From a virus (Duplodnaviria > Caudoviricetes): a DNA stretch of 45,410 nt. This document shows positions 1 to 24,986 of the stretch, piece by piece (the first letter of the stretch is position 1; each line of letters opens with the position of its first letter). Location of the stretch: the IMG/VR virus record IMGVR_UViG_3300037851_000418, positions 1 to 45,410 of that record; one strand, given 5' to 3'. The notes under the pieces are model-generated. The model worked only from the letters and a program-made list of their open reading frames with translations. It did not search any database and was not told the DNA's origin. A program made the position numbers and the translations under genes.

Positions 1-254
1 TCACGAGCGCATCCGTAGCCTGATGGAGCCTCAATAACATGGGCTGGAGCGTAATCCTCGGAGAAGGCGCGACCGCCGTCACGTTCGACGCGAATATGCG
101 GTTCGACAGCGCCTTCAAGGCCAACCCCAACGAGAACGGCGACATCGAGAGCGTGGACTATCTCTTCGACGTCGAGGGCATCCTCGTCGATCCGACTCCC
201 GCGACCGTCGGCGCCGGCCTCGTGACGTACTCGGAGCTCGTGACCGAGCAGACC
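1..254 (+). repeat. Terminal direct repeat, copy 1 (assembly circularisation overlap)
   Basis: 1-254 matches 45157-45410 except C127 vs T45283. Confidence 0.97.
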
Positions 255-1058
255 CTCCCCGTCCGCGTCCAGATCAAGCAGGACGGGACGACGCGGTGGG
301 ACCTCCAGACCGAGGACGGCTTCAACGGCCCTTATGTGACCGAGTTCCGGTCGCTCGGCCGAGAGGAAGGTGGGAGCGGGAAGAGCCACTGGCGCTATGC
401 ATTCCAGATCAGCTTCAAGGGCAAGGGCAACGCCTCGGGCGGCGGGGAGACGCTCTACGAGTTCCAGACCTCGGTCGCGGTGACGAAAAAGAACGGGAGC
501 GTCGTCCGCAAGGTCTGGAAGGCCTCGGCGAAGTCGACCTCCGCCGACAGCGCCATCAGCGCCGTCATGGGATTCAAGCCGGCGGAGAAATACACCGTCG
601 AGGAGACGGAGAAGTTCACGCAGGACAAGCGCGCGACCGGGATCTGGATCTGGGAGGCGGACACGAAGGGCGTGAAGTCCTGGGTCTGCCGCGTCACCTG
701 GCGGCCCGGGAAGGGATTCATCGACCGTCCGTCCGCAGGGAATGCAGACCCTGTCCTCTATGCGAAGCAACGGGTCGCCTCCGTCTGCGAGGTGGACGGC
801 TCGATCATCAGCTACGATCCCGCGGTGATGCCCCCCGGGGAGCACTTCACGGAATCGGAGACGATGCGGCGATGCCCGGACATGGAGCGCCGGGGAGAGG
901 GCGCGGTCATCAACGGAGATCCGAGGAACGGGGAATACCGGCTGGACTACCACGAGGTCTGGAAGTCAACTCAGGGAGAACCTGCGCCGAAGCACTCGGA
1001 TGACCATCACATCATCAGCCTGGGCAGCGCGCCGGCGGATGGGGCGGTGAGCGGATGA
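39..1058 (+). CDS. Putative tail protein following the tape-measure candidate
   Basis: 339 aa, beta-rich; starts 1 nt after the TMP stop on the circle; function inferred from position only. Confidence 0.6.
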   Translation: MGWSVILGEGATAVTFDANMRFDSAFKANPNENGDIESVDYLFDVEGILVDPTPATVGAGLVTYSELVTEQTLPVRVQIKQDGTTRWDLQTEDGFNGPYVTEFRSLGREEGGSGKSHWRYAFQISFKGKGNASGGGETLYEFQTSVAVTKKNGSVVRKVWKASAKSTSADSAISAVMGFKPAEKYTVEETEKFTQDKRATGIWIWEADTKGVKSWVCRVTWRPGKGFIDRPSAGNADPVLYAKQRVASVCEVDGSIISYDPAVMPPGEHFTESETMRRCPDMERRGEGAVINGDPRNGEYRLDYHEVWKSTQGEPAPKHSDDHHIISLGSAPADGAVSG

Positions 1059-1060
1059 GG

Positions 1061-1381
1061 TTACTGAGGCTCGGACATGGAACGGAGACGCTCCATGTAC
1101 CATTCCATTGCTTCCTTTTCTGCTTTTTCCCCGGATTCTTCTATGTGTTTTTCGAGGCGGACCTTGCGCTCTTGCTCCTCGGCCTCGCGACGTCTCTTTA
1201 TCTCCTCGACCCTCTGACGGCACCTTTCAACATTCGCTTGGGCCTCGTCATTCCTGCGCTTGTACTGGACGAGCCCGTAGGATGTGACCGCAGCGAGAGC
1301 GATTACCATGAAGACGAGGAGGAACCAGAACACCGGATCGAACCCCTTTCCTCTACAGCGTTCCCTCCGTGCAGTTTCCAT
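1061..1381 (-). CDS. Membrane-anchored coiled-coil protein paralogous to the TMP C-terminus (moron; putative superinfection exclusion)
   Basis: GGAGG RBS; basic N-terminus, one TM helix (VFWFLLVFMVIALAAVTSYGLV); last 60 aa are 32/60 identical to the last 60 aa of 44585-45193. Confidence 0.85.
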   Translation of the reverse strand: METARRERCRGKGFDPVFWFLLVFMVIALAAVTSYGLVQYKRRNDEAQANVERCRQRVEEIKRRREAEEQERKVRLEKHIEESGEKAEKEAMEWYMERLRSMSEPQ

Positions 1382-1396
1382 AGAACCTCCATAGGA

Positions 1397-1425
1397 ACTA
1401 TAGCCCTGGCCCTGGCGGAAGGCAA
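1397..1425 (-). promoter_or_regulatory. Sigma70-type promoter for the antisense moron
   Basis: Minus strand TTGCCT-17 nt-TATAGT just upstream of the GGAGG RBS. Confidence 0.75.
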
Positions 1426-1434
1426 GGTGAATCC

Positions 1435-3900
1435 GTGACGGTCCTGCGCTGCGAGATCGTCTACCAGGGGTACAAGTGCGTCCGGGGGGCCTACCGGCGT
1501 TCGGACGGCCTCCAGCCTGAGCCCGGGGTGGTCGAGATCCCGCTCGAGGACATGGGCCGGATCGAGATCAAGGGCCGGTCGATTCCTTGGGAGGCTGTCA
1601 CCGGGGCCGAGTGCGACGGCTGCGTGGATATTCGGACCTGGGAGCGATTCAAGAAGTCGGCGACCACCACTGCGGACCGGGGCCCCATGCCGGAGCCGTC
1701 CGGGGGCCTGAACCTCTCCGGGGACCTCATCCTCCGGACCCTCGACGACAAGTCCGGGAAGGCGATCCATGAGATCCGGTACTCGGACGTCTACGTGGAC
1801 GTCGGGATCGAGGAGACGACGCGGGAGCTCGCGACGATCCTCGAGCACCGGGAGGGCCTGGTCCGCGTCCCGCTCACGGACATCCGGCAGTATTACGACC
1901 AGGGCGGTCTCCTCTGCCGCATCAACTGCCGGCGGAAAAACGGGATGTGGGATTACGAGACCCTGAAGGAGGATCAGAATCCCTGGTCCTTCATGGACGT
2001 CCTCGAGTTCCTGTTCTCCCAGCTCCCCGGTTCGCCTCCCATCGTGAAGGAGTGCGACGTTCGGGTCATGCAGTTCGACGCCCCGCAAGGAATCGAGGGC
2101 CAGGGCGAGTCCGCGGTGCAGTACCTCGATCGGTTCCTGGAGCGGTACGGCCTCAAGGCCCAGATGCAGCCCGACGGGAAATTCGCCGTCAACCTCAAGT
2201 CCTCGAACCGGATCGGGAAGCAGGTGATCGCAACGGCCCCGCGGAGTCCCGAAAGGATTTCCCCTGGGGATATGCAGTACGAGCGGCTGACGTCCACGCC
2301 CACGCGGAGGCCCTCGGCAGTCTGCGTCGTGGGCGGGAAGCGCATCCAGAGGGAGAGCGTCCACTGCGTCCCGGTCATCCAGGACCCGGAGGACGGCAAC
2401 TGGTACACGCTGGAGAACCGCTGCGGCGCCTGGGGTTATTCCCTGTCGGAGCTGAACCGTCACGTCTTCGTGAGCGGGCCGCGCCAGTACGCGGACGTCC
2501 CTCCGTCTCCGACCACGCACGATACCGTCAGAATTCACAACGGGCGCCGGGACGCTCTCAAGATGGCTTATCGGTACTATCTCCCGACGTTCATGATCGC
2601 GCCCTCGGGGATGGTCATCGGGACGGGCCGTCTCACGGATGACCCGGCCCTCGACCTGGTGCCATGGCTTCCAATGGTCGATTCCGCGTGGTATCTCCAG
2701 GAACTCCAGGGGGAATTCGCGGAGAAGCATCCGGAGGACAAGGCCTCCAAGGGGGACCTTGACGACTTCGTTCTCCTTCCTCCCGTGGTCCGCGCCAACT
2801 ATGTTGGAGAGAAATTCTTCAAAACCTGGAAGGAATTCGAGCGCGAGCACGAAGCGAGCATGGCCCGCGCGGTCGGGGTGAAGGACCAGCTCGAACTCCT
2901 GAAATACGAGTACGAGAAGAAGAACAAGAGCACCTACGACGAACTCAACGAGGCTCAGAAGAAAACCCAGGAGACGATTGACAACGCAAAGCTACTGAAG
3001 TTTGGGATTGAAAAGGGTGTTGTTAAGCCTGATGGGGACCTGGAAGTGGCTAAGGCCCGCCTGAAAAATATCATTTCAGAGGAAGAGAGGAAAAGGGCTT
3101 CTTCCGAATCGGAGGCCGCGAAGGAGGCCAAGAAAAGATACGAGGACATGATCCAGCACCTCGACAAGGAGATTAAGGATCAAGAGAAGGCGATCATAAC
3201 CATCAAGAATCAGATGGGGGAGATGAAGGATAGTTACGAGAAGAATGGCTCCCTCCTCGCCCGCTTCAACACCGGCCAGTGTGTCACGAAGAAGGCCAAG
3301 GTCGTCGACCTGAAGACGGGGCTTATAGAATCCTCGGTCCCCCTCGTGACGATCGACAAGCCCTTCTTCTTCAACGGCGACTCCGTCCACGTGGTTGCGA
3401 ACGGCGCCGTCGTGGTCACGTTCGGCCACGAGATCCGGGGCTCCTGGGCCGGCGCCTACACGAACTACCTCTGGTACGCGGACGACGGCGGGGACCCGAC
3501 CTCGGACGCGAAGCCGACCTTCGGGGGCTGTCATCGGTCCAGTCCCATCAAGGCGACGATGGTCCGGATGGAGTCCCGGGAGTACCTCCAGGAGAACGGG
3601 AACCCCGTGAATTACAACGCCTGCTACTCGGAGGCCAAGGGCAAGGCGGCCCAGATGCTCGCGGGCCCCGCGATCCTCCCCGGCTGGGTCATGGAGCTGC
3701 ACGGCCTCCGGAAGTGCGTCCTCGACGCGGGGATCTGCTCGGTCCAGCACGACTGGGACGGAACGGTCGGGCAGACTCACGTGTCCGTGAACGCCCCCGG
3801 AGCACGGATGCCGCTCCTGGCGCCCATGGCCCGGGCGCCCAGACGCACGGACCAGGCGGACCTCCGGGATACCCTCCAGCGCGAGAAAGGGGATGCGTAG
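1435..3900 (+). CDS. Large tail-tip/baseplate hub-like protein with central coiled coil
   Basis: 821 aa, GTG start, tail-module position; E/K-rich helical segment at about 2830-3240. Confidence 0.6.
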   Translation: MTVLRCEIVYQGYKCVRGAYRRSDGLQPEPGVVEIPLEDMGRIEIKGRSIPWEAVTGAECDGCVDIRTWERFKKSATTTADRGPMPEPSGGLNLSGDLILRTLDDKSGKAIHEIRYSDVYVDVGIEETTRELATILEHREGLVRVPLTDIRQYYDQGGLLCRINCRRKNGMWDYETLKEDQNPWSFMDVLEFLFSQLPGSPPIVKECDVRVMQFDAPQGIEGQGESAVQYLDRFLERYGLKAQMQPDGKFAVNLKSSNRIGKQVIATAPRSPERISPGDMQYERLTSTPTRRPSAVCVVGGKRIQRESVHCVPVIQDPEDGNWYTLENRCGAWGYSLSELNRHVFVSGPRQYADVPPSPTTHDTVRIHNGRRDALKMAYRYYLPTFMIAPSGMVIGTGRLTDDPALDLVPWLPMVDSAWYLQELQGEFAEKHPEDKASKGDLDDFVLLPPVVRANYVGEKFFKTWKEFEREHEASMARAVGVKDQLELLKYEYEKKNKSTYDELNEAQKKTQETIDNAKLLKFGIEKGVVKPDGDLEVAKARLKNIISEEERKRASSESEAAKEAKKRYEDMIQHLDKEIKDQEKAIITIKNQMGEMKDSYEKNGSLLARFNTGQCVTKKAKVVDLKTGLIESSVPLVTIDKPFFFNGDSVHVVANGAVVVTFGHEIRGSWAGAYTNYLWYADDGGDPTSDAKPTFGGCHRSSPIKATMVRMESREYLQENGNPVNYNACYSEAKGKAAQMLAGPAILPGWVMELHGLRKCVLDAGICSVQHDWDGTVGQTHVSVNAPGARMPLLAPMARAPRRTDQADLRDTLQREKGDA

Positions 3901-4263
3901 ATGTCAGAGTCGATCACCGTCCGGTACAACTCCGCGCCCACGATCAAGCGCGTGATGAAGGACACTCGGAACGAGGAGGACCCTGACGAGGTCCTGGACA
4001 TCACGGCCTACGACATCAAGCTGATCGTGAAGCAGGACGTGGAACTGGCGGACTCCCGGGCCTGGTTCGACGTGGACGCCGTGGTCACGGACGGCCCGAA
4101 CGGCGAGTACGAGTTCCAGCTCACGGCGGCCCAGACGTGCAACTGCCCGGGGACCTGGCCGGGGGAGATCCGCTGGTGGGCCACGGGCTACGTGGCGGGG
4201 ACGCCCCCCACGGATTCCGTGAGCGTGGACTTCACGATCGAGGACGTGGTGGACCTTCCGTAG
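3901..4263 (+). CDS. BppU-N-like baseplate/tail adaptor protein
   Basis: 120 aa; pattern DITAYDIKLIVK...VVTDGPNGEYEFQLTAAQT...PGTWPGEI resembles BppU N-terminal domains. Confidence 0.55.
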   Translation: MSESITVRYNSAPTIKRVMKDTRNEEDPDEVLDITAYDIKLIVKQDVELADSRAWFDVDAVVTDGPNGEYEFQLTAAQTCNCPGTWPGEIRWWATGYVAGTPPTDSVSVDFTIEDVVDLP

Positions 4264-4278: not shown

Positions 4279-5919
4279 ATGGCTTCTCCTTTCGGCGGCG
4301 GGGACCTCGGGGACGGGCAGGTCTATAACCCCACCGTCGAGGCCCTGACCTTCTGGGACCTCTCGGAATCCCCGACCACGAACGACCGCATCAAGAAGCT
4401 CGGGGCCGAGCTGGCCTCCCGCGCGCAGGCGCTCGCGGACTATGACGAGAAGGCCCACGTGGGGAAGTACGCGGACGCCCTCCAGCCGGATCGCGGGCAG
4501 AATCAGCCGGTCGTGACCCTCCGTCTCTTCGAGCCCGACAACTGGGTCCCCCGCCTGCATGAGGAGAACGGCCGCGGGAAGGATTCCGTCTGGGCCCTCC
4601 GGTTCATCAGCGACCACTCGAACTACGCGAAGGAGCGCGAGTGCCGCTCGACGATGGTCATCGACCAGGACGAGAAGGCGCAGTCCTGGGCTTGGCTCTC
4701 CGACGTGACCTGGCTCGTGGACCTCGGGACCAGCGTCGAGGACAACGAGCTTGCGTTCAACGGAGCTGGCTTCCTGACGATGCTCTACGCGACCGGGAAG
4801 CCGATAAAGAAGCGCGCGGCCCTCGCGATCAACATGGCGGGGAACGCGGGCTTCCTCACGCAGGGGACGGCGATCGGGCAGCTCCAGCACGTCCTCTGCA
4901 TCGTCGGCGCCGGCCAGGGGACCTTGACCAGGCCGACGAAGCAGACCGAGGCCGCCCTCCGCGGGGATGTCCACTTCTTCACCCAGAAAGGCCTCGCACA
5001 GTTCTACCACGAGCAGGAGAAGACGAAGGACGTCTACACGGACGAAGCCCGGGAGGTCCACTTCTACGTCTCGGAGAAGGACGCTCCGGACCTCGGGCTC
5101 GATGCTACCGACGATCTCCTTTCGAACCACAAGAAGATCCCGCGCCTGGGAGCGAAACAGTGGCGCGGATGGGTGAAGGTCCCGCGCAGCGGAGGGGGCG
5201 ACACCAAATACGACTACTCCTGGCACAAGAAGACCAGGAAAAAGCCCTCGAGCGGCGGTGGCGGAGGGGCGGGGACGGCCACGGAAGGCCACGGTGACAG
5301 GGCGCCGACTTCCAACGCCAGCGGGAACGAGAATCCCGACGGCAAGGCCAGAAACACGCAGAAAGACACGACGAATGGGGTCCCGACCTACGACGCATCG
5401 AAGTATGTGCTCATCGGAGGCGTCCTCGTCCCTATCTTCAGCGGGGCGGCGGCGACGCAAGTCCAGTACGGATCCCCCGAGGCATCCTCCCCCGCCTGGT
5501 GCCAGGACGTCAACATCTTTCCCCACGAGGACGGGACGGAGATCAATCCGACGGCGAGCTGGGAGTGCACGAAGGGGGCCGGCTATACGGATATAGCGAT
5601 GGAGCTGATGGTAAAGGTTTCGGATGCCATCACCCCCGGGGAAAGGCTTACGCTCGACATCAAGGTGATGTTTCTCGCGGACGACACCCCGCAGGCAGGC
5701 ACGGAGATATACGGGCGCCGGATCGAGCTGGACGATTCGACGCCCAGCGGTTCGGCCGCGGCGTACTCGAGGATCACGGCCTACTTCAGCGGATTCCCGA
5801 AGGAGGAGGGCGTTTTCAAGGTGTGGCTGGAGCGGCGCTGCGACGACCGGACCCTCGATCCGACTTACGACGCGGACGTCGAGGCCTGGGTCATGAGGTC
5901 GATGCCGGCTTATTACTGA
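4279..5919 (+). CDS. Putative tail structural protein
   Basis: 546 aa, backbone codon usage, Gly-rich linker between two domains. Confidence 0.55.
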   Translation: MASPFGGGDLGDGQVYNPTVEALTFWDLSESPTTNDRIKKLGAELASRAQALADYDEKAHVGKYADALQPDRGQNQPVVTLRLFEPDNWVPRLHEENGRGKDSVWALRFISDHSNYAKERECRSTMVIDQDEKAQSWAWLSDVTWLVDLGTSVEDNELAFNGAGFLTMLYATGKPIKKRAALAINMAGNAGFLTQGTAIGQLQHVLCIVGAGQGTLTRPTKQTEAALRGDVHFFTQKGLAQFYHEQEKTKDVYTDEAREVHFYVSEKDAPDLGLDATDDLLSNHKKIPRLGAKQWRGWVKVPRSGGGDTKYDYSWHKKTRKKPSSGGGGGAGTATEGHGDRAPTSNASGNENPDGKARNTQKDTTNGVPTYDASKYVLIGGVLVPIFSGAAATQVQYGSPEASSPAWCQDVNIFPHEDGTEINPTASWECTKGAGYTDIAMELMVKVSDAITPGERLTLDIKVMFLADDTPQAGTEIYGRRIELDDSTPSGSAAAYSRITAYFSGFPKEEGVFKVWLERRCDDRTLDPTYDADVEAWVMRSMPAYY

Positions 5920-5920
5920 T

Positions 5921-6493
5921 ATGGCGGACGCATTACTCCAGGTCCTGAAAGAGCACCTCGCCGGAGGCTATTTCTGGTTCGAGGACTACGAGACAGAGAT
6001 CGGGTCCTCGGGCCTGAAGGGCTTCTACCACTACGCCTCGATCGGCGATCCCTGGTCCTTTTTCCAGGCCGCCGGCGGCCACCAGTTCTCGCGGGAGTGG
6101 GACGCGGCCTCCTCGCGCCCGATCCCCCGCATCACGTCGGTCCTCGGCGGTGCTCTGACATCCTATCTCCGCCGGCGGATCCGGGTCCCCTACGACTTCG
6201 GGAGCTTCCCATCGAACGCGATCTCCCTCATCGTGCGCGCGAACGACATCACGGGCCCGACGCTCACGGCGACGCTGCTCAAGGCGGGGGTGGCCGACTC
6301 GGGGGTCAACGGCGTCTCTATTCTCCCGGCCCTGGCGGATACCTGGACCCTGAAGCAGCTTACTCCGGCGGACACCTATTCCCGGGGCGATCTCGTGACG
6401 CTTGAGATCGCGTGGGCGAGCGACGCGGCGGACCAGTACGCGGAGGTCGGGGACCTGGCGGCCGCCTACGTGTCGGGGAGGGGCAACGTATGA
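5921..6493 (+). CDS. Hypothetical (probable virion) protein
   Basis: 190 aa, tightly packed between neighbours. Confidence 0.6.
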   Translation: MADALLQVLKEHLAGGYFWFEDYETEIGSSGLKGFYHYASIGDPWSFFQAAGGHQFSREWDAASSRPIPRITSVLGGALTSYLRRRIRVPYDFGSFPSNAISLIVRANDITGPTLTATLLKAGVADSGVNGVSILPALADTWTLKQLTPADTYSRGDLVTLEIAWASDAADQYAEVGDLAAAYVSGRGNV

Positions 6494-7179
6494 CGACGGT
6501 GAGCCCTCCCGACCTGGTCGTGGCCTTCCTCCAGTGTGATCGTCCGGAGTACACCCGGCGGACGCTCGATAGCTTCACGAGGCACGCGGCCGGGATTGCG
6601 TGGGAGGGCTGGTACGCTGATGACGCCTCGACGGACCAAGCCAGCATGATCTCCCTCGTGGAGTCCTACGGGCTGAAGCCCGCCGTGGTCCACGATCGCC
6701 GGGGGGGCTGCACGCCGACGACGTTCCAGCTCGTCAAGGCCCTTACATACCGCTACGAGCCCGAGACCTTGGTCCTATACCTCCAGAACGACTTCGAGTT
6801 TCTCCGCCTGATCCCACTCCGCGAGATCCGGGAGCTGCTCGAGGAGCGTCCGGACGTCGGCTGGGTCCGCCTCGCTGGGGCCCATAACTCCGGGCCCGAT
6901 CGCCCCGCCATCAACGAGGCCTGGTGCGATCGCATCCCCCCCGCCCAGTGGTGGGACTACTCCGTGGGGGAGGAGGTCTTCGACGTGGGCAGGAGTTACT
7001 TCTGCTACAACCCGCCCCCGGTTGTTCATCTGGGGCTCCTGTATTACATCCTCCAGGAATCCAAGAGCGAGAAGGAGACCGCCTATCATGCCCTCGAGCT
7101 GGGAAAGCTCGCGGCGAGATTCAAGAACAACGTGGCGATCCACGTAGGCCTCGAGAAGACGTATGGATTCAAAAGCTGA
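6490..7179 (+). CDS. Glycosyltransferase, GT-A/GT2-like
   Basis: ATGA overlap with upstream gene; DRPEYTRRTLDSF, YADDAS, YLQNDFEF motifs; 229 aa. Confidence 0.75.
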   Translation: MTTVSPPDLVVAFLQCDRPEYTRRTLDSFTRHAAGIAWEGWYADDASTDQASMISLVESYGLKPAVVHDRRGGCTPTTFQLVKALTYRYEPETLVLYLQNDFEFLRLIPLREIRELLEERPDVGWVRLAGAHNSGPDRPAINEAWCDRIPPAQWWDYSVGEEVFDVGRSYFCYNPPPVVHLGLLYYILQESKSEKETAYHALELGKLAARFKNNVAIHVGLEKTYGFKS

Positions 7180-7894
7180 CGTCCTGACCCCGGACTGGAC
7201 GGTCGTGATGCCGACGCATCGGCCGAAGCGGCTGGAGCGTTCCATTCGCTCGGTGATGGACGCCCATCCGTATCCGATCAAGGCCGTCATCGTCGCGGGC
7301 GACGAGGCCACGGCGGAGGCCGCGAAGGCCCTCGGGCTCGATAGCGTGATGAATCCCGGGGAGTTCTGTACTTCCCGCGCGTGGAATCTCGGGCTCGCCC
7401 AGGTGAAGACCCCCTACGCCTTCGTCTTCGAGGACGACGCCCGGCTTCTCACGCCCATCGGCCTCGACGAGCTGGTCCGGATATCGCGAAGCATGAAGGA
7501 TTCGGCGATCCTGGCTCCGGCCCTCCGCGGGGACGTCCTCGGCCACAAGATCTTCACCGCTGGGGCTCCCTGGACGATGGCCGAGATCGGGCCGAAGGAC
7601 TTTACCCTCGTGGCCGCCCTGGTCCCGATGTCCCTCTACGCCCAGGTCGGGCCGTTCGATGAGATGCTGACCGGGTACGGGTACGAGGACACCGACTACG
7701 CCCTCCGGGCGAACGATGCCGGATTCAAGGTCATCATCTACCAGCGCGTCATCGTGGATCATGAATCCTACCTCTCCGCGTTCCGGGAAAGGAAGTCGGA
7801 CGGGCCCTCGCTCGGGAAGATCTGCTTCGATAACCGTTGTAAGTTCGTCGCGAAGCACGGCCGGAAGGCCATGAGGCTGATATCTAAATGGTGA
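7163..7894 (+). CDS. Glycosyltransferase family 2
   Basis: VVMPT, AWNLGL, FVFEDDA, GPFDEMLTGYGYEDTDYALRA motifs. Confidence 0.88.
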   Translation: MDSKADVLTPDWTVVMPTHRPKRLERSIRSVMDAHPYPIKAVIVAGDEATAEAAKALGLDSVMNPGEFCTSRAWNLGLAQVKTPYAFVFEDDARLLTPIGLDELVRISRSMKDSAILAPALRGDVLGHKIFTAGAPWTMAEIGPKDFTLVAALVPMSLYAQVGPFDEMLTGYGYEDTDYALRANDAGFKVIIYQRVIVDHESYLSAFRERKSDGPSLGKICFDNRCKFVAKHGRKAMRLISKW

Positions 7895-8646
7895 AGATCC
7901 TCGCCTGCGTCCCGGTCTACAACGAGGAGAAGCTGCTTCCCCATTTCCTCCGCCGCTACGAGCGGTTCTGCGACTCGATCCTCGTCTACGACAATGGCAG
8001 CACGGACCGGACGCTGGAGATCGCTGAAGCCCATCCGCTGGTGAGGATCAGGACCTTCCGGACGGACGGATTCGACGACGCGGCCTTCCTCGCCATCCTT
8101 ACCGCCGCCAAGACCGAGGCCCGCGGCGCCTTCGACTGGGTGATCCTCCCGGACTGCGACGAGCTGCTCCTGGGGGATGTGCGCGGGATACTCTCATCGG
8201 CCCCGAGCGATGTCCTGACTCCTCTCGGGTACTGCCTGGTCCAGTCCCCACAGGAACCGGCGCTCGACCTCGGCCGGGACATCCTGGAGCAGAGGTCCTT
8301 CGGCTGGAGGTCGGTCCGGTACTCGAAGCCGATCCTCATGCGCCCGGAGGCGGACGTGACGCTCCGACCCGGGAGGCATTCCGTCTTGAGCGACAACTAC
8401 GAGGTCGCCTGGCACCCGGGGCTCGCGCTCGTCCACGTCGAGATGATCGACTTCGACCTTTGGCGTTATCGGAAGAATCGGAGGCCTCTCAGTACCCTGA
8501 ACCTGAAAGCAGGCCACGCCACGGACCGCTTCTGCCTCTCCGAGAGGAGCCATCAGGATCAGTGGATCAACGCCGTCTCGCTCTCGATGGATCTCCGGCA
8601 GGACCTCGCGCAGTTCCTCCGCAGCCGGGAGGAGGTCTCCCGATGA
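7888..8646 (+). CDS. Glycosyltransferase family 2
   Basis: VPVYNEE, VYDNGSTDRT, DWVILPDCDE motifs. Confidence 0.88.
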   Translation: MVKILACVPVYNEEKLLPHFLRRYERFCDSILVYDNGSTDRTLEIAEAHPLVRIRTFRTDGFDDAAFLAILTAAKTEARGAFDWVILPDCDELLLGDVRGILSSAPSDVLTPLGYCLVQSPQEPALDLGRDILEQRSFGWRSVRYSKPILMRPEADVTLRPGRHSVLSDNYEVAWHPGLALVHVEMIDFDLWRYRKNRRPLSTLNLKAGHATDRFCLSERSHQDQWINAVSLSMDLRQDLAQFLRSREEVSR

Positions 8647-9368
8647 GAATCCACGTCGACGACTACGGCCTTGGGGACCACCTGGCGGTGACGGCGTTCG
8701 TCCGCGAATTCAAGCACCGCTGGCCGCAGGAACTCATCACGATCGCGAGCCAGAGGCATCAGTATATTTGGGAGAACAACCCTAACATCAACTGGGGCCG
8801 GGAAGAGATCCTCGGGAACGTGAAGCCCGACTTCAAGAAGAACCCGGACCTCGGGAATATGCCCCGGCAGATGTGCATGAACCTCGGCTTCATCCCGGAC
8901 GACACGCGGCCGGAGATCTTTCTCGCCGACACGGAGAAGGGCTTCGGACCCCTGGCCCTGCGCGGACTCCCAAGGCCCATCGTCGCGCTCGATTACCACG
9001 CCACGGCCTCCGAGCGCCGCTGGCCCCTGGAGCGGTTCCAGGAGGTCGTCCGTCTCCTGCGCGGGCAGGGCATCTCGACCGCGGAGATCGGGGGCAATCC
9101 CCCGAAGCTCTCGACCGACCGGGCGCTCTCCCTCGGCCTCCATGTCCGCCAGACGGCGGCGATCCTCGCGGAGTGCGACCTCTACATCGGGAACGACAGC
9201 GGTAGCTTCCACCTGGCGGCCTCGGTCGGGACGCCGCAGGTCGTACTCTTCGGCCCCACTCATTCGCGTTCGTTTGCCTACGAGAGCACGACGCCGCTGG
9301 ATAACTTCTGGCAGGTCTTCCCGGAGAACGTGCTGGAAAAGGTGAAGGAGGTCCTCGCCTGTGCCTGA
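8643..9368 (+). CDS. Glycosyltransferase family 9 (heptosyltransferase-like)
   Basis: ATGA overlap; GLGD, RRWPLERF, DLYIGNDSGSFHLAASVGTPQVVLFGPT signature; 241 aa. Confidence 0.9.
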   Translation: MRIHVDDYGLGDHLAVTAFVREFKHRWPQELITIASQRHQYIWENNPNINWGREEILGNVKPDFKKNPDLGNMPRQMCMNLGFIPDDTRPEIFLADTEKGFGPLALRGLPRPIVALDYHATASERRWPLERFQEVVRLLRGQGISTAEIGGNPPKLSTDRALSLGLHVRQTAAILAECDLYIGNDSGSFHLAASVGTPQVVLFGPTHSRSFAYESTTPLDNFWQVFPENVLEKVKEVLACA

Positions 9369-9923: not shown

Positions 9924-10217
9924 ATGCCGACGCTGGTGACAGCCCAGGAAATCTTCCCGAAGGACTCGGAGGAGCAGAAGGCGGCTATCGTGGCCCAGGT
10001 AATGGCCGCGCCCGACGTGAAGGTCGAGGAACTCACCGAGCCGATCACCGAGCCGCTGGGGGCGTCGAAGGGCATGACCCGCGTGACGGCCACGGTCTGG
10101 ACGAGCGCGAAGCTGGGCTACCGCGTGACGGAGACGCGGCTCTTGATGAATCCCCCAAGCTCGAAAGCCTTCTGCGCGGAACGGGGCCGGGAGATCAAGC
10201 TGGAGAAGCTCTTATGA
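9924..10217 (+). CDS. Hypothetical protein
   Basis: AGGAGG RBS, ATG 9924; 97 aa (MPTLVTAQEIF...). Confidence 0.65.
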   Translation: MPTLVTAQEIFPKDSEEQKAAIVAQVMAAPDVKVEELTEPITEPLGASKGMTRVTATVWTSAKLGYRVTETRLLMNPPSSKAFCAERGREIKLEKLL

Positions 10218-11488
10218 CCAATAGGTATGTGGCGAAAGACGGAAATGACGCGAACGACGGCTCTACCTGGGCTCTTGCGAAGCTCACGATACAGGCCGGG
10301 GTTAACCTGATCGCCAGCGGAGACACGCTGTATATCGGCGCTGGAGTCTATAACGAAACTATAACAAGGACGATGAACTCCACGACCGCTACGATTCAGG
10401 GGGTCGGGTTAGTGATCGTGGATGGCGGCGGAACGATATCCACAAACATGAACTGTGGCCCGTTGTCGGGGACTCTAAACCTAACGATCAATGACATCGT
10501 ATTCCAGAACCACACCAGCGGGGCCTGTTATCCGACTGCGAACACAAACGTGTGGACGTTTAACCGTTGTCGGTTTGTCGGTAATGGGTATGGCATCTTG
10601 CTACAGAGATACCCCAATATAACAGTTGCTAATTGCATATTCGCCAATAACTCCATTGCTGGCATCGGAGCTACTGCCCTCGCTGGAGGCTACAGCGTTA
10701 TAGCGTCCGTGTCTTGGTGTACTTTTGTGGACAATATCGTTGGAATACTTACCACCACAACTAACCCGACGATAACATCCGTTAAGCACAACGTCTTTGT
10801 CGGGAACACCCTGCATTGGTCGCTCCCAGATATGACCAGCATAACCACGATAGACTATAACGACATTTGGTTTGATGGGGTATCTGGCACTCTGGTGGGT
10901 TCCACCTCAGACACCACATTTAGCGGATGGAAGACAACGTCTAGTAAAGACGCTAACTCGGTGTCCGAAGATCCGATATTTCAGGATAGGACGCGCAAAT
11001 CTTTCGGGTTACATAAAACATCGCCTCTATGGGACGATATCAATGAAGTGGGAACGTATGGCGCTGGCCACATGGGACAAATTCGAACCGTTGGCATGAG
11101 CTACGGCGATCTGGATGGGAATTACGCAAATGCGATCATGGTGGATTGCCAAAAAAACGAGTCGAATAACTTCGACACGACGAGCGCCACTTCGGGAACG
11201 GTCCGTACCGGAGTGATAGACATGGGTTCCGCTAAATTAATTCGATACATCAACATCCAAACCAATCTGGACAAGAACAGATATCCGCTGGACGTGCCCG
11301 ATTACGATATTGCGGACGCCGACCCAAGAACCATCACTATCAGGTGGAGGGGATCGTTGACGTCGTTCGCGAACGATGACGTTGTTCCAGCGTGGACAGA
11401 AATAGAACCTTCCGTGCTAGGGGAGGACGTAAACACGATATGCAGGTACGTCCAAGTAGAAACGACCCTGAGAAGGAACGGAGCCTAA
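10214..11488 (+). CDS. Right-handed parallel beta-helix (pectin-lyase fold) tail spike / receptor-binding protein
   Basis: YVAKDGNDANDG...TIQAGVN...GDTLYIGAGVYNE cap; repeated NCIF/NRCRF/HNVF rungs; visibly lower GC than the backbone. Confidence 0.8.
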   Translation: MTNRYVAKDGNDANDGSTWALAKLTIQAGVNLIASGDTLYIGAGVYNETITRTMNSTTATIQGVGLVIVDGGGTISTNMNCGPLSGTLNLTINDIVFQNHTSGACYPTANTNVWTFNRCRFVGNGYGILLQRYPNITVANCIFANNSIAGIGATALAGGYSVIASVSWCTFVDNIVGILTTTTNPTITSVKHNVFVGNTLHWSLPDMTSITTIDYNDIWFDGVSGTLVGSTSDTTFSGWKTTSSKDANSVSEDPIFQDRTRKSFGLHKTSPLWDDINEVGTYGAGHMGQIRTVGMSYGDLDGNYANAIMVDCQKNESNNFDTTSATSGTVRTGVIDMGSAKLIRYINIQTNLDKNRYPLDVPDYDIADADPRTITIRWRGSLTSFANDDVVPAWTEIEPSVLGEDVNTICRYVQVETTLRRNGA

Positions 11489-11683
11489 ATGCCGTCCAAG
11501 GTCGAACTGAAGTCCGTGGAGATATGCGCTGGCGGCGGCTTTGAGCTTTACAGTGTCGAGATAACCACGTCTTACGGTCTGGAGCTATATTCTGTAGAGA
11601 TTAGCCACGAAACAGGAACCGCCGAACTCGACCGCACCTTCAACCGCCTGTTGAATGGGCAATTTAACGGAGGATTCAACTAA
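11489..11683 (+). CDS. Small protein with three ELxSVEI repeats
   Basis: 64 aa; VELKSVEI/FELYSVEI/LELYSVEI at a 13-aa period. Confidence 0.65.
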   Translation: MPSKVELKSVEICAGGGFELYSVEITTSYGLELYSVEISHETGTAELDRTFNRLLNGQFNGGFN

Positions 11684-12627
11684 TGCTCCTCTTGCAAAAG
11701 GACGAGGCGACCGCCGCCCAAAGAAGAGTCCCGATGTACCTCGTGGACTCTGGAGACGGGATCACGCCAGAGACGGGCGTTACGATCTCGGCGGGTGACC
11801 TCAAGATATCCAAGAACGGCGGGGCCGAAGCCAACCACGCCGGGACCCTCACCGAAGTCGCGGGCGGGAACTACTACTACGAGGCGACGGCGGGGGAGCT
11901 GGATACCGTGGGGTACATCACCCTCCGCCTCTCCAAGAGCGGGATCAGGGTGTTCAACGCCTGCGCCCAAGTCGTGGCCTTCGACCCCTACGACGCGGTG
12001 AGGGCGGGGCTCACGGCGCTCCCGGCTGCGGCGGCGGAAGCGGCTGGGGGACTCTTCACGCGCGGGACCGGAGCAGGGCAAATCGCCCAGGACTCCAACG
12101 GGACGATCAGCGTCCATACGAAGACGATGGAGGATGGGGTCATCGCCGCGACGAAGCTCCAGGATTCGGCTATCACCGCCGCGAAGATCGCCGACAACGC
12201 GATCACGGCGGCCAAGCTCGCGACCGACGCGATCACCGCCGCGAAGATCGCAGCCGACGCCATCACCGAAATTCAGGCTGGACTGGCCAGCGCGGGCGAA
12301 ACGGCGGCGCTCCAGGTGGCGGTCGAGGACATCCAGGCCCGTCTCCCCGAGGCGCTGGTTAGCGGCATGATGCCGTCCTACGTAGGCGGAATCGAGGCCG
12401 CGACCGCAACCGCGATCGGGACTGCCCTCCTCGACCTGACCGATGGCGTGGAGACGGGGCAGACGGTCCGGAAGATCCTCCGGGGCATCGCGGCGATCCT
12501 TCTGGGTAAGACCTCTGGCGGGCCGGGGAGCACGGTCTTCCGCGACATCAATAACGCCAAGGACCGCGTGACGTCGGTCGCGGACCAGGACGGCAACCGG
12601 ACGACGGTGACGCTCGACCTGACGTAG
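11683..12627 (+). CDS. Tail-fibre-like structural protein
   Basis: 314 aa; GGAGG RBS; tandem AITAAKIA-type 10-aa repeats. Confidence 0.7.
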   Translation: MLLLQKDEATAAQRRVPMYLVDSGDGITPETGVTISAGDLKISKNGGAEANHAGTLTEVAGGNYYYEATAGELDTVGYITLRLSKSGIRVFNACAQVVAFDPYDAVRAGLTALPAAAAEAAGGLFTRGTGAGQIAQDSNGTISVHTKTMEDGVIAATKLQDSAITAAKIADNAITAAKLATDAITAAKIAADAITEIQAGLASAGETAALQVAVEDIQARLPEALVSGMMPSYVGGIEAATATAIGTALLDLTDGVETGQTVRKILRGIAAILLGKTSGGPGSTVFRDINNAKDRVTSVADQDGNRTTVTLDLT

Positions 12628-12640
12628 CGGAGGGCCTCTC

Positions 12641-12781
12641 ATGTACTACCTGCGGTCGAACTACTTCCGGGGGTACTACTCGGCGAGCTACTACCTCGCC
12701 GGGAGCGCCGGGGTAGTCGCGACGTTCGGGGCGACGCACGTCGTTGACGCCGGGATTCCGAGCCGGAGATCGGGGATCTGA
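12641..12781 (+). CDS. Tyr-rich 46-aa peptide (not in the ORF track)
   Basis: GGAGG RBS; MYYLRSNYFRGYYSASYYLAGSAGVVATFGATHVVDAGIPSRRSGI. Confidence 0.6.
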   Translation: MYYLRSNYFRGYYSASYYLAGSAGVVATFGATHVVDAGIPSRRSGI

Positions 12782-12881
12782 AGAATGCCCTGCGTCTGCT
12801 GGTACTGCTCGATGTCCGGGAGCTGGCCCGAGTGCTGGGCGTGGTGTCTGGTGGCCCTGGAGGGATGAGGAGGTTATCGCC

Positions 12882-13175
12882 ATGAGCGACGGATTCCGCC
12901 GCGTGATGGACAAGGTCCTGGCCGGAGCGGTCGGCCTCGTCCTGGTCCTCGTCCCCGCCATCTGGGCGATCACCTGGTGCAGCACCGAGCAGAAGTGCGA
13001 GGAGAACGCGGCAGAGATCCGCGCGACACAGAAGCTGGACCGGGAACGCGGGGAGCGCGTGACCTCGCTCGAGGCCGGCCAGAAGGAAACCGAACGACGC
13101 CTCCAGCGGATCGAGACGAAGCAGGACTCCCTCGCCGACGACGTGAAAGAGATTCTGCGGCGGATGCCACGTTGA
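12882..13175 (+). CDS. TM + coiled-coil lysis-module protein (holin/i-spanin-like)
   Basis: GAGGAGG RBS, ATG 12882; N-terminal TM helix then coiled coil; 97 aa. Confidence 0.6.
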   Translation: MSDGFRRVMDKVLAGAVGLVLVLVPAIWAITWCSTEQKCEENAAEIRATQKLDRERGERVTSLEAGQKETERRLQRIETKQDSLADDVKEILRRMPR

Positions 13176-13207
13176 CCTGGCCCTGGAGATGAAAGGAGGC
13201 CTGAAGT

Positions 13208-13552
13208 ATGGCGAACGAACTGAGGGTGAAACTGGACGACCTGGCGAAAGTCCTGGGCGCCGAACTCCAGGCGACCTGCGCGGACATCCTCGACGGCGCC
13301 GAGGAGGACCTGAAGGCCTTTGCGCTCGCAATGGCGGCCGATGCCCTGCGGGTGCTCCAGGGGACGGCGGCTGAGGATGTCGACGAGCACCTGGAGGCCC
13401 AGGCGGCTCTCCTCGCGGAGAAGCACCGGATCAGGATCGAGGACGGCGCCCTCGGTTGGCTGTTGTCCGCGCTCAAGCTCGCCGGAAACGTCGCGCTCAA
13501 GGTCGGGGAAAAGTACATCGAGGCCTACGTGTCCTCGAAGATTGGAGGATAG
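13208..13552 (+). CDS. Hypothetical helical protein in the lysis cassette
   Basis: 114 aa, AGGAGG RBS. Confidence 0.65.
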   Translation: MANELRVKLDDLAKVLGAELQATCADILDGAEEDLKAFALAMAADALRVLQGTAAEDVDEHLEAQAALLAEKHRIRIEDGALGWLLSALKLAGNVALKVGEKYIEAYVSSKIGG

Positions 13553-13556
13553 GATC

Positions 13557-13979
13557 ATGGAGAGAACGGGCATCAAGACGACGGAGTTCTGGGTCACGGC
13601 GGTGGTGGTCCTCGCGGGTCTGCTCCCCTCGAGCGGGCTCATCCCGGAGGGGCACTGGGGCGTGAAGGTCTGCGGCCTGGTCGTCTCGGTCGCGGCGGCG
13701 CTCGGCTATACCGTCGCGCGGGGGAGCGTGAAGAAGGCCACGGCCGCAAAACTCCTCCTCGTCGCGCTCCTCATCGGCCTCCTCGCCGGCTGCGGGGGCC
13801 AGGGCTACATCCGCGCGGAGGCGATCCAGCCGGCGGTCGACCTGGTGACAGGCCTCCACGATCGGCTACTCATGGGCGAGATCAAGCCGGGCGACATCAA
13901 GCACGAGGACCGCGCGACGTACCTCCGGACGAGCGAGCTGCTCCGAAGTACCGTCCGGGAGGCCGCCGAGAAAAAGTAA
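13557..13979 (+). CDS. Holin-like protein fused to a lipoprotein domain
   Basis: ATG 13557; GIKTTEFW plus two TM helices, then KKATAAKLLLVALLIGLLAG|C lipobox; 140 aa. Confidence 0.65.
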   Translation: MERTGIKTTEFWVTAVVVLAGLLPSSGLIPEGHWGVKVCGLVVSVAAALGYTVARGSVKKATAAKLLLVALLIGLLAGCGGQGYIRAEAIQPAVDLVTGLHDRLLMGEIKPGDIKHEDRATYLRTSELLRSTVREAAEKK

Positions 13980-14002: not shown

Positions 14003-14044
14003 GCCCTCCTCTCTCGTGGTGACTCCGGGAGGGGAGGGCTTTTT
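14003..14044 (+). terminator. Intrinsic terminator ending the late operon
   Basis: GCCCTCCTCTCTCG / CGGGAGGGGAGGGC stem followed by TTTTT. Confidence 0.8.
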
Positions 14045-14964
14045 CATGCCCTCGGGTGCGCCTGGTCGTACACCCGCCGGAGCCTCACGCGGGAGACGTG
14101 GGTGTAGATCTGGGTCGAGCTGATGTCCTCGTGGCCGAGGATTTCCTGGACGTCGCGCAGGCCGGCCCCATGGTCAAGGAGATGGGTCGCGCAGGAGTGA
14201 CGGAAGCGGTGGGGCCAGACTCGGCCTTGGATGCCGGCGATCATGGCGAGGGCGGTGATGTACTGCCGTGCCATGCGATCCGATAGCGGCCATCCACGGA
14301 GGCCTATCCAGAGGGGCGACTCCGCTGTGAGGACGTGTCCCTGCTCCCGGCGGTGCTCGATCCAGGCCTCGATAGCCCTCTTCGTCTCATGCGTGATGAG
14401 CAGCAGTCTCTCCTTCTGCCCTTTCCCGAGGACGAGGATCTCCAGCGATTCCAGACGGAGGTCTTGCATCCGCATCCCGCAGAGTTCCGAGACCCGGCAG
14501 CCCGAGGAGTACAGCGTTTCGAGGACGGCCCTCATGAGCGGCCAAGTCCTCGCGGTGTCCATGATCTGGCGAACCTCCTCCTCGCTCAGGGGCTTCGGGA
14601 CCGACTTCACCCGCCGGACTCCGCGGACCTCGCGCGGGATGTTCTCCCAGACGTAGCCCTCGCGCCGCAGCCAGGTATAGAGAGAGCGGACCGCGGAGAG
14701 CCTGTTGTTGATCGACCGGGGGGCAAGCTGGAGCTGGTCCCGCAGATGCAGGATATAGTTGTCCATCGTCCGAAACTCCAGGCGATCATATTGGACCTTG
14801 GCCGAGGCGAGCCAGCGGAAGAACAGGGTCCCCCCGTATTGGTACATCCGGATCGTGTTGTCGTTGTGTCCTCGAGCTCGAAGGTGGGCGATCCAGGAAT
14901 CGAGAAGCGCGGGCGGGGCGGCCTCTGGACGACAGGCCGCTGAAATCCGGTGTTCGGCGACCAC
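14044..14964 (-). CDS. XerC/XerD-like tyrosine recombinase (probable integrase)
   Basis: LYSSGCRVSEL, GKGQKER, PHRFRHSCATHLL, LGHEDISSTQIYTH, C-terminal HPRA; start uncertain (GTG 14964 gives 306 aa; frame open to 15072). Confidence 0.93.
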   Translation of the reverse strand: MVAEHRISAACRPEAAPPALLDSWIAHLRARGHNDNTIRMYQYGGTLFFRWLASAKVQYDRLEFRTMDNYILHLRDQLQLAPRSINNRLSAVRSLYTWLRREGYVWENIPREVRGVRRVKSVPKPLSEEEVRQIMDTARTWPLMRAVLETLYSSGCRVSELCGMRMQDLRLESLEILVLGKGQKERLLLITHETKRAIEAWIEHRREQGHVLTAESPLWIGLRGWPLSDRMARQYITALAMIAGIQGRVWPHRFRHSCATHLLDHGAGLRDVQEILGHEDISSTQIYTHVSRVRLRRVYDQAHPRA

Positions 14965-15124
14965 GTGATGCCACCGGAGACTCTCCTCCCCCGACCTCTC
15001 ATCCCCCCGATCCGGGCCTCCCTTTCCGATGCCTGTACGCCGTAGCCCCGGTCGCGCAACTTCCCTTCCCATTCAGTATACACGGAACCGGGAAATATAT
15101 TTTGAGAATAAATTCACTTTCCGC

Positions 15125-22816: not shown

Positions 22817-23047
22817 GTGGCGAAGAAATCGGATGTGCCCACCTTCTGCCAGGCGAAGACGCTCAATGACCTCGGGAACCGGGGCGCTCACCTATTCGAC
22901 GTGACCTCGTGGTATCTCCCCAGCGTCCTCAAGGCCCTGGCCGTTCGTGGCTGGGTCACGCAGCGGAAGTTGAAGATTTACCGCACGTCCGGCGGGACGA
23001 GCGCGCTCAGGAGATACCGGGAGCAATCCGGGGGTGCGATGTTATGA
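22817..23047 (+). CDS. Small hypothetical (possible wHTH) protein
   Basis: GGAGG RBS, GTG 22817; 76 aa. Confidence 0.55.
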   Translation: MAKKSDVPTFCQAKTLNDLGNRGAHLFDVTSWYLPSVLKALAVRGWVTQRKLKIYRTSGGTSALRRYREQSGGAML

Positions 23048-23631
23048 AGACCAAGCGTCCCCTCTCCGTCCTCCAGCCCGTGGCCGAGGAGCTGCTCGCG
23101 CTGCTCTCCCTGTCATGCAGAAGGATCTCCATCGCAGGGAGCATCCGGAGGCGGTGCGCGGAGGTCGGCGACATCGAGCTTGTGGCCGTCCCCCGCATCG
23201 AGCGCGTCGCCCTCCCCGCCCAGCAGCAACAGGACTTCTGGGGCGATCCGCCGGCGGACCAGGAGGTCAACTTCCTCTGGCGGCAGCTCGACGGCCTCGC
23301 GGAGAAGATAGGCCCGCGATTCGAGCGCCTGAAGTGGGGCGACAAGTACCGCGCCTTCCGCTGGCCGCTCCCGCACGAGATAGGGTCCGTCCAGGTAGAC
23401 CTCTTTACCGCCGAGGAGGATAACTGGGGGCTTATCCTCCTCATCCGCACCGGGAGCGCGAAGTTCTCCCAGCACGTCGTAACCCAGCTCAAGCGCCGAG
23501 GCACCCCATCGCAGGGAGGTTACGTCCGCGGCTCCAAGGGGACGCCGATCCCCACCCCCACCGAGGAGGAGGTCTTCAGGCTCGCGGGGATGCAGTATCA
23601 CGCGCCGGAGGAAAGGGGATGGGTGAGTTAG
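23044..23631 (+). CDS. Minimal PolX / DNA polymerase beta-like nucleotidyltransferase
   Basis: IAGSIRR...GDIELV, VDLF, IRTGSAKF, TEEEVFRLAG...PEER (palm + thumb only); 195 aa. Confidence 0.85.
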   Translation: MKTKRPLSVLQPVAEELLALLSLSCRRISIAGSIRRRCAEVGDIELVAVPRIERVALPAQQQQDFWGDPPADQEVNFLWRQLDGLAEKIGPRFERLKWGDKYRAFRWPLPHEIGSVQVDLFTAEEDNWGLILLIRTGSAKFSQHVVTQLKRRGTPSQGGYVRGSKGTPIPTPTEEEVFRLAGMQYHAPEERGWVS

Positions 23632-24254: not shown

Positions 24255-24283
24255 TTGACTATGCGCCTTTCGTGGGCTATACT
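24255..24283 (+). promoter_or_regulatory. Near-consensus sigma70 promoter upstream of the minimal recombinase
   Basis: TTGACT-17 nt-TATACT. Confidence 0.8.
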
Positions 24284-24362
24284 AATGACGGTTGGACTCC
24301 TCGGGGCCGTGCGGTCCCGGGGCATTTCGGACACTTCGGCAAGGCCAGAACGGACTCTGCCC

Positions 24363-24986
24363 GTGTTCAGTTCAACCACCTCCTGGTCCCTCCCCCGCGA
24401 GAAGTGCATCACCCGCCCGGAGATCGGCCGCATCCTCGCCCAAGCCAAGGAGACATCCCCCGCGGATTACGTCTTCCTGGCAACCGCCATCAACACCGGC
24501 CTGCGGATGTGCGAGGTAGTCCACCTCAAGAAATGCGACTTGCTCGACGGCCAGCTTCGCATCACCCGCCGAAAGAAGAAGAACCTCAAGCCCGAGGTCA
24601 TCGACGTAGTGCCCGCCCTCTGGGCCGTGCTGGCAGAGTGGGGCCAGATGTTCCAGGGCGACGAGTGGCTGTTCCCGGGCCGGGCCGGAGCTTGCTTCGT
24701 CCATCGGAAGAACGGCGCGGTCATCCAGGTCTGCAACGGGGGCCACGTCTCCCGGCGCAATATGCAGCGCCGCTGGGATGTCATCCTGCGGGGCGTCGAT
24801 CTCAAAATGCCCGGCCGGGGCATTCACTCGGCCCGGCACTACGCCGTGACCCGGTTCTACGAGGATACCCGGGACCTCCGCGCCTGCCAGATGTTCGCGG
24901 GCCATTCATCTAGCATGATTACCGAGCGGTATGCCCATGTGCTGGAGATGCGGGAGAAGGTTCAGTCGATGGGGGCTAGTTTGTGA
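24363..24986 (+). CDS. Catalytic-domain-only tyrosine recombinase
   Basis: NTGLRMCEV, RRKK, HSARH, AGHSSSMITERY; no N-terminal core-binding domain; start uncertain (GTG 24363 or 24309). Confidence 0.88.
   Translation: MFSSTTSWSLPREKCITRPEIGRILAQAKETSPADYVFLATAINTGLRMCEVVHLKKCDLLDGQLRITRRKKKNLKPEVIDVVPALWAVLAEWGQMFQGDEWLFPGRAGACFVHRKNGAVIQVCNGGHVSRRNMQRRWDVILRGVDLKMPGRGIHSARHYAVTRFYEDTRDLRACQMFAGHSSSMITERYAHVLEMREKVQSMGASL

Follow-up and report, generated by a model that had tools for sequence, protein, structure and literature searches.

An antisense gene copying the C-terminus of a phage's own probable tape measure protein, a possible membrane-anchored exclusion factor

Results and discussion

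In the tail module of a tailed phage (Duplodnaviria; Caudoviricetes; IMG/VR record IMGVR_UViG_3300037851_000418) we find a small antisense gene that ends in a diverged copy of the C-terminus of the phage's own probable tape measure protein (TMP), preceded by a predicted membrane anchor. The gene is under purifying selection, and it is an accessory, moron-like element. Judging from its sequence and position, we lean towards the reading that it encodes a lysogen-expressed, periplasm-facing TMP decoy that would block DNA injection by phages with a similar tail. All positions refer to the window, that is, the whole stretch of 45,410 nucleotides that was analysed.

Architecture of the antisense gene and its likeness to the TMP end

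The gene (P0002; 1061-1381, minus strand) starts with ATG and encodes 106 aa: a basic N-terminal tail, one predicted transmembrane helix (residues 17-37; 1271-1333, minus strand) and a TMP-like helix of 69 aa. An earlier note on this DNA had let the feature run to 1425; the minus-strand reading frame is real, but 1425 belongs to the -35 box and the start codon ends at 1381. The same note called it the only minus-strand gene of the virion region, which agrees with the map of open reading frames (plus-strand genes tile the region) without amounting to a gene-by-gene proof.

The last 60 codons and the stop (1061-1243, minus strand) align without gaps to the C-terminal 60 codons of the TMP candidate, the source of the copy (45011-45193, plus strand). 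As the note had read it, 32/60 residues are identical and both proteins end in EPQ followed by a stop. Significance against shuffled coiled coils had been set as a test beforehand: the local score is 148, against a maximum of 76 in 20,000 plain shuffles and of 86 in 20,000 heptad-preserving shuffles. Of the 32 shared residues, 20 are encoded by different codons (at the DNA level the first, second and third codon positions agree in 38, 44 and 23 of 61 cases), and the selection on the protein that the note deduced from such codons is borne out by the dN/dS of 0.26 given below. When the alignment is anchored at the C-terminal end, the ungapped register covers 92 residues of which 36 are identical (only 4 within the first 32 positions), so that the transmembrane helix of the copy is placed opposite the hydrophobic helix of TMP, at a hydropathy of 2.43 against 0.98 for TMP.

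The combination of a basic N-terminus, a single transmembrane helix and a TMP-like helix, also proposed earlier, is predicted in all four copies that we found (see below for the relatives). Each has a basic N-tail of 16-17 residues (3-6 K/R against 1-3 D/E), one hydrophobic helix of 21 residues and 68-71 further residues, a layout from which anchoring in the inner membrane and a TMP-like helix outside the cytoplasm would be expected. The predicted topology is therefore N-in/C-out, though the positive-inside bias is weak in the copies of the window and of its relative L001 (3-4 K/R also follow the helix) and clear in the two others.

In composition the gene stands apart from the genome (GC 0.55 against 0.65 genome-wide; GC3 0.64 against 0.86-0.89 in the neighbouring genes). 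Searches against Pfam and NCBIfam gave no match above cut-off, PHROG and PADLOC gave only weak composition-type matches, and no match was found in 50,697 GenBank phage records. Direct searches with the protein against viral contigs and word-indexed proteins yielded nothing new, the latter search also missing a relative of 68% identity. A complex prediction with two TMP chains (residues 72-202) and one copy received a score of 0.00 and a mark of 0.32, which is no evidence either way.

Promoter, ribosome-binding site and overlapping frame

The gene has its own sigma70-type promoter match, as previously noted: TTGCCT-17-TATAGT (1397-1425, minus strand), predicted from sequence, is the only promoter-like site in positions 1-4000 (0.5 expected). 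The claimed ribosome-binding site is likewise present (GGAGG, reading 1390-1386 on the minus strand) and is kept in the relatives L001, L002 and L015. Both promoter hexamers are identical in L001 and L002, and in L015 the only promoter-like site in its positions 5000-9000 (TTGCCA-17-TAGGAT) lies at the same position relative to the antisense gene. The -35 box overlaps the ribosome-binding region of the hub-like gene. For a terminator, two minus-strand sites were found (609 and 507), which is at chance level (2.5 expected), and neither is convincing.

The 376-nt insert contains only the antisense gene and its shadow frame, a plus-strand frame open at 1055-1438 that spans the insert. This frame begins in a 4-nt overlap with the stop of the Dit-like gene, ends over the start of the hub-like gene, and is open in three lineages (1055-1438 in the window, 6627-7010 in L001, 7014-7415 in L015). 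It is not conserved as a protein, and a dN/dS of 1.66 rules it out as a real gene. Given the codon usage, the chance of an open in-register plus frame is about 0.65 for the coding part, so that such frames are common here; the frame may nevertheless keep the translational coupling of Dit and hub.

The probable tape measure protein

The partner of the copy is a protein of 202 aa (P0001; 44585-45193, plus strand) located between a chaperone-like and a Dit-like gene in all seven lineages. That it is the TMP, as the earlier note had taken it to be, is very probable on the basis of this synteny (in which tube and chaperone are assigned by position) together with the predicted folds of its neighbours, Dit-like on one side and weakly hub-like further on. 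P0001 itself has no match among curated TMP profiles. Among the 25 matches shown, 7 PHROG TMP families each match 1-2 of 52 family members, and for Pfam the 25 matches shown include no TMP family; an Atlas lead for P0001 points to a TMP_2 cluster (0.93, with 113 shared features).

A profile search collected 77 family proteins, most of about 200 aa and with a coil / Gly-rich hydrophobic / coil layout; the 52 aligned members measure 184-223 aa (median 202). In the relatives studied here the TMP has either 202-206 or 276-278 aa, the proteins of L032 and L033 being about 75 aa longer at the N-terminus. The family thus represents a large undescribed group of phages (about 70 clusters) with a TMP of about 200 aa. 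Such a size is plausible given the TMP of the gene transfer agent RcGTA, g11, which is some 216 residues long, occupies the tube and the rings of the distal tail and enters the periplasm by ejection, according to the parts of the source consulted (PMC7296036). Compared without sequence alignment, the middle of g11 is beta-rich, unlike the Gly/Ala-rich hydrophobic middle of P0001.

The copied end is the fast-evolving part of TMP. The dN/dS is 0.95 in residues 163-190 but 0.33 in residues 1-142, conservation among the 19 closest aligned members is lowest in the C-terminal third, and the mean identity in the family is 0.24 for the copied end against 0.46 for the hydrophobic region. This fits either escape pressure or weak constraint.

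Genome and neighbouring genes

Positions 1-254 repeat 45157-45410 with one mismatch, so the genome is circular (the mismatch is C at 127 against T at 45283; contigs of the sequencing runs X1 and X2 have T). On the circular map the TMP candidate and the antisense gene are about 1 kb apart, in the order TMP candidate, Dit-like gene, antisense gene, hub-like gene.

The Dit-like or baseplate-tube-like gene (39-1058, plus strand; 339 aa) directly follows TMP, and its stop lies 2 nt from that of the antisense gene. The N-domain of its model (pLDDT 75) resembles the phage 80alpha baseplate chain (Z 9.8, rmsd 3.1 over 113 aligned residues) and SPP1 Dit (Z 7.8), and T5 tail-tip chains of about 295 aa are among its best Foldseek rows, at a non-significant E. 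The baseplate-hub-like gene (1435-3900, plus strand; 821 aa) diverges from the antisense promoter. Its model is of low confidence (pLDDT 47), with VgrG and the MuSo2 43-kDa tail protein as best Foldseek rows (E 1.4e-3 to 8e-3, probability 0.99-1.00); neither the Dit-like nor the hub-like model has a Foldseek match at E<=0.001. A wide structural search with the hub model was filled by matches to its coiled coil (residues 455-606), and when hub and tube profiles were compared with PDB sequences, all matches were at chance level or to coiled coils. In all aligned relatives hub residues of about 455-606 (window 2800-3250) form a long, low-GC and fast-diverging coiled-coil hairpin, a possible second partner of TMP or of the copy.

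Upstream of the TMP candidate lie a tail-completion-like gene (weak PF11367, below cut-off), a tube candidate of 327 aa, a conserved 400-aa gene (42920-44122) and a chaperone-sized gene (44149-44580, plus strand). The last is called tail-assembly-chaperone-like by position (it directly precedes TMP in the relatives) and has no family match. The 400-aa gene has no family match and no match in GenBank phages either; its homologue in L015 carries a 118-aa insertion near the end. In all, tblastn against GenBank phages gave no match for two tail proteins besides the antisense product.

Elsewhere the phage encodes a lambda-type terminase, a portal, an S49 protease, a major head protein and two tyrosine recombinases. 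Of the latter, the full integrase (14044-15072, on the same minus strand as the antisense gene; PF00589 E 7.7e-38, phrog_1) makes the phage probably temperate. The second (24255-24986) is without the N-terminal SAM-like domain and follows a stretch of low GC; a promoter-like site is present at 24255. Four tandem glycosyltransferase-like genes (6412-9368), three with GT2 or GT9 matches, stand in the late region and possibly glycosylate the virion or the host surface. A low-GC beta-helix gene (10214-11488) may be a swapped receptor-binding module, and a DNA polymerase X thumb-like gene is seen at 22909-23631. Holin-like and lipoprotein-like genes were read by eye at 12744-13979; no endolysin was recognised among the 49 proteins scanned, and by eye 11683-13979 holds only these holin-like and lipoprotein-like genes. 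Scans of genome contigs with the TMP and Dit profiles found no host or integrated prophage.

Relatives, selection and accessory presence

When contigs from viruses, metagenomes and genomes were scanned with the TMP profile, each scan yielded either just the two close relatives or no match. Scans with the Dit and tube profiles returned 9 records, which together with the window make up 7 lineages. The earlier note had proposed looking for antisense transmembrane genes near the TMP of related phages, and these are indeed present in 3/7 lineages (the window, L001/L002 and L015). The gene is missing from L014, L016, L032 and L033-L035; in these four lineages the Dit stop overlaps or abuts the hub start. 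A self-tblastn of each TMP against its own record likewise shows a second copy in 3/7 records, all of them carriers (in this set G002 is a 32% fragment, and G003, the record of L016, has one weak match at E 0.003).

In L001 and L002 the gene has one and the same sequence and stands in the same slot, at 68% identity to the window copy. Compared with L001, the whole gene has a dN/dS of 0.26 and its TMP-like part one of 0.15, and the gene is thus under purifying selection. A third copy, P0071, has 38% identity and again 106 aa, a length that is constant in these three copies. It stands on a contig of 2204 nt, and the contig of a close Dit homologue is equally long, which suggests that P0071 may occupy this slot too. 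A contig of run X3, which comes from another study, covers 795-1390 with 36 differing letters in 596. Run X2 covers only a small share of the window, with none of the listed pieces spanning the gene, and no RNA data set is among the three runs listed.

With its insertion between two tail genes, its own predicted promoter (a consensus match) and its differing GC, the gene shows the marks of a moron. An integrase is encoded by both near-complete carriers and by 2/3 complete non-carriers; a link of the gene to integrase or lysogeny is therefore unsupported, the difference being not significant. The 59-kb genome of L016 has no PF00589 integrase and joins the same tail module to a head and replication module other than that of the window, L015, L032 and L033.

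Does each copy match its own TMP?

L015 is a distant relative, whose TMP is 32% identical to that of the window (20% over the C-terminal 60 aa); its slot between Dit and hub holds an antisense gene for a single-helix protein of 109 aa. When compared with the 77 TMP-family proteins, the L015 copy scores 141 with its own TMP, 91 with the next protein and 64 with the window TMP (shuffle maximum 68), and the window copy also scores best with its own TMP (157). Over the last 56 aa the cognate pairs of window and L015 score 139 and 133, the cross pairs 50-54. The contrast is narrower when gaps are allowed (cognate identity 53% and 41%, cross 31-35%).

The expectation that each copy matches its cognate TMP end thus holds between the distant lineages, but not between window and L001. 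The L001 copy has 27/60 identities with either TMP and scores 137 with that of the window against 133 with its own; only one site, TMP 187, changes in parallel (A/A against F/F). Co-evolution at the strain level between window and L001 was accordingly not found, and the number of independent cognate pairs is two only.

For a tree of the last 62-65 residues we used 4 copies and 18 TMPs (22 rows), the latter being the best full-length matches of the profile search plus P0001, P0006, P0011 and the L016 TMP. The three close copies form a clade of their own (99/97) and group with the window and L001 TMPs (96/88). The L015 copy groups with its own TMP (86/70, unstarred), a pairing that a rerun did not recover; the tree is based on 65 low-complexity columns. 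A tree in which the four copied ends are monophyletic is rejected (p-AU 0.007 for the full 22 rows, 0.004 without four long branches).

Origin of the cassette

The anchor region tells a different story from the copied end. In L015 it scores 45 against the window copy and 49 against the L001 copy, but 18 against its own TMP; the likeness to the window and L001 copies is supported by block shuffling (p 0.007 and 0.002), and the anchor of P0071 is without such likeness (23-29). The copy and the Dit-like gene have stops 2 nt apart in all three lineages, and their DNA upstream of the copy is similar as well (p about 0.01). The hub tree groups L015 with window and L001 (97/96), whereas L015 and the window stay apart in the trees of Dit and tube.

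In the simplest and likely reading of these sequences, a single cassette inserted at the 5' end of the hub gene, and its TMP-like end was later copied anew at least once or co-evolved closely with the resident TMP; the alternative is that two cassettes arrived independently at one site. Synonymous sites between copy and TMP are saturated in window and L001 (pS 0.76 and 0.90), so that any copying in these two is old; recent gene conversion in the window lineage is ruled out by the same saturation.

Proposed function and rival explanations

Being accessory, separately promoted, antisense and following its own TMP, the gene is best read as an exclusion factor that would poison, or compete with, the ejected TMP. 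The antisense sigma70 promoter would allow expression while the tail operon is repressed. The product would sit N-in/C-out in the inner membrane, with some 69 residues (a helix of roughly 10 nm) facing the periplasm, and would there resemble an ejected TMP: a hydrophobic helix in the membrane and a C-terminal helix pointing back to the tail tip. It might enter the incoming TMP bundle as a subunit that is missing the N-terminal 110 or so residues, or might instead occupy the site on hub or host that the TMP end needs; either way the channel would fail. Assembly of the phage's own tail in the cytoplasm would be undisturbed by a periplasm-facing decoy, and no anti-system would be needed.

The structure of the T5 tail offers a frame for this. 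According to the parts of that study consulted, TMP is trimeric over its last 35 residues, which sit in the hub cup; on opening, the TMP C-termini become anchored between hub subunits as the hydrophobic segment enters the membrane (10.1101/2022.09.20.507954). The proposed decoy is like this opened-state TMP, but without the N-terminal half.

A more far-reaching version, which we put forward only tentatively, has a fixed cassette of promoter and anchor whose end is periodically re-copied from the resident TMP gene. Temperate phages would then draw their superinfection exclusion from their own injection machinery. Such a decoy would be self-updating and dominant-negative: it would poison the DNA channel of any phage that shares the tail, and would drive rapid change of the TMP tip.

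Among the other explanations, the one that survives best, though we consider it unlikely, is a role in the phage's own cycle, as a minor virion or injection component or as a late membrane protein (an Rz-like spanin or a single-helix lysis regulator). An i-spanin consists of an anchor and a coiled coil, and the antisense product has an architecture of this type. It also has a weak match to the Rz-like phrog_312 (E 0.0099), but with no significant stretch, and members of the TMP family give similar matches. For a lysis regulator there is a precedent in mycobacteriophage D29, where a one-helix regulator gene is reported, in the part of the source consulted, downstream of the tape measure gene (10.64898/2026.08.27.747656). 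A helper that binds its own TMP would, moreover, track the TMP sequence as well. Against such a role, the gene runs antisense to the late operon from its own conserved promoter, and 4/7 lineages with the same tail module lack it. As to a spanin in particular, which would be a late gene of the lysis cassette with an outer-membrane lipoprotein gene inside or beside it, the gene lies between Dit and hub and is overlapped by a plus frame that is not conserved as a protein, and separate holin-like and lipoprotein-like genes are present at 12744-13979 (by eye).

Improbable, in our judgement, is another mode of exclusion in which the product saturates or remodels a host envelope protein engaged by the TMP end and leaves the incoming TMP untouched. 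The same evidence for an accessory, promoter-driven (by prediction) and envelope-facing protein would apply. Precedents, in the portions of the sources consulted, are the filamentous phage protein pIII, which saturates TolA (PMC7070036), and the lambda TMP, which associates with ManYZ (PMC13190303). Wider sharing would be expected of a host target, yet the copied end is the least conserved region (0.24 against 0.46) and follows the phage's own TMP.

Quite improbable is a cytoplasmic poison of tail assembly in superinfecting relatives, competing with the TMP C-terminus for the hub in the manner of Tab and Tai. The earlier note had offered disruption of tail assembly as an alternative role, which fits poorly with the predicted N-in/C-out topology: 4/4 copies have a strong transmembrane helix and a basic N-tail that predict a periplasmic helix. 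The copy does contain the extreme C-terminus of TMP, the segment that is trimeric in the T5 hub cup over its last 35 residues (10.1101/2022.09.20.507954, parts consulted), and Tab acts via the TMP C-terminal region (PMC10884400, parts consulted). Tab needs an anti-system, though, and the 376-nt insert contains no candidate counter-defence gene.

Finally, antisense transcription that dampens leaky tail genes, or a near-neutral duplicate with an incidental protein, is very improbable: transcription converges into the Dit-like gene with no convincing terminator and the -35 box overlaps the hub ribosome-binding region, but the minus-strand protein has a dN/dS of 0.15-0.26, keeps 106 aa in three copies down to 38% identity, and matches its cognate TMP at the protein level despite saturated synonymous sites.

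If the preferred reading of a TMP decoy is true, a blocker built from the TMP end would show a birth route of exclusion genes. The decoy would also mark a segment of TMP that is important in the periplasm, an open question in injection by non-contractile tails.

Comparison with known systems

Exclusion proteins that act through TMP are known, but a full-text literature search, in which most papers were judged by title and the start of the abstract, found none that is built from TMP itself. By sequence the antisense product falls outside the described TMP-targeting exclusion families (gp15, Imm, Ltp, SieA), and for the TMP-acting entry blockers gp15, Imm, Ltp and SNIPE the source parts consulted describe no relatedness to TMP. 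Outside bacteria, the restriction factors Fv4 and Fv1, derived from endogenous retroviruses, are host-anchored pieces of a virus that act against related viruses, and membrane-anchored gp41 C-peptides inhibit entry with a piece of the virus's own entry protein. These are animal systems or engineered constructs and serve as analogy only; if the decoy reading is true, it would be a bacterial parallel to such virus-derived restriction factors.

Two phage systems use an envelope-expressed copy of an entry protein to exclude related phages, as proposed for the decoy. In superinfection immunity by Ff phages the unmodified virion protein pIII saturates TolA (PMC7070036), and P-FimU mimics a host pilin (PMC12952977). 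As far as these sources were consulted, neither protein is a shortened duplicate, dedicated to exclusion, of the injection protein of a tailed phage.

Tab and Tai are prophage-expressed defences against tail proteins, and the decoy is proposed to be one as well. Sensitivity to Tab, which belongs to the Tab/anti-Tab pair of Pseudomonas phage JBD26, maps to the TMP C-terminus (PMC10884400). According to the parts of the sources consulted, both Tab and Tai (PMC11364771) block assembly and need a counter-defence gene, in contrast to the decoy, which is membrane-anchored (by prediction) and TMP-derived.

Similar to the proposed mode of action are proteins that meet TMP at the membrane, here as described in the parts of the sources consulted. 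SNIPE engages TMPs there (PMC13190303). For Ltp, from Streptococcus thermophilus phage TP-J34, binding to the C-terminal end of TMP has been proposed; unlike the decoy, Ltp is a lipoprotein with acidic repeat domains that relies on charge complementarity, and it is no TMP copy (PMC3952083). T4 Imm, a small membrane protein, binds the TMP of its own phage and keeps the channel from forming (10.64898/2026.03.06.709160). It differs from the decoy in having several helices, in being likened to colicin immunity proteins, in binding a helical-bundle domain and in belonging to a lytic myophage; TMP homology is not stated in the portion consulted.

Another counterpart is HK97 gp15, a small inner-membrane protein whose gene is inserted in the tail operon with its own promoter and a differing GC, and which blocks DNA entry in dependence on the incoming tail region including TMP (PMC3594210; PMC10883804; parts consulted). 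The proposed decoy resembles it as a small predicted membrane protein whose gene is inserted among the tail genes with its own predicted promoter and a differing GC. The gp15 gene, however, is placed between those for chaperone and TMP, and the parts consulted do not present it as TMP-derived, whereas the decoy gene is placed between Dit and hub, runs antisense and is a paralogue of the TMP end.
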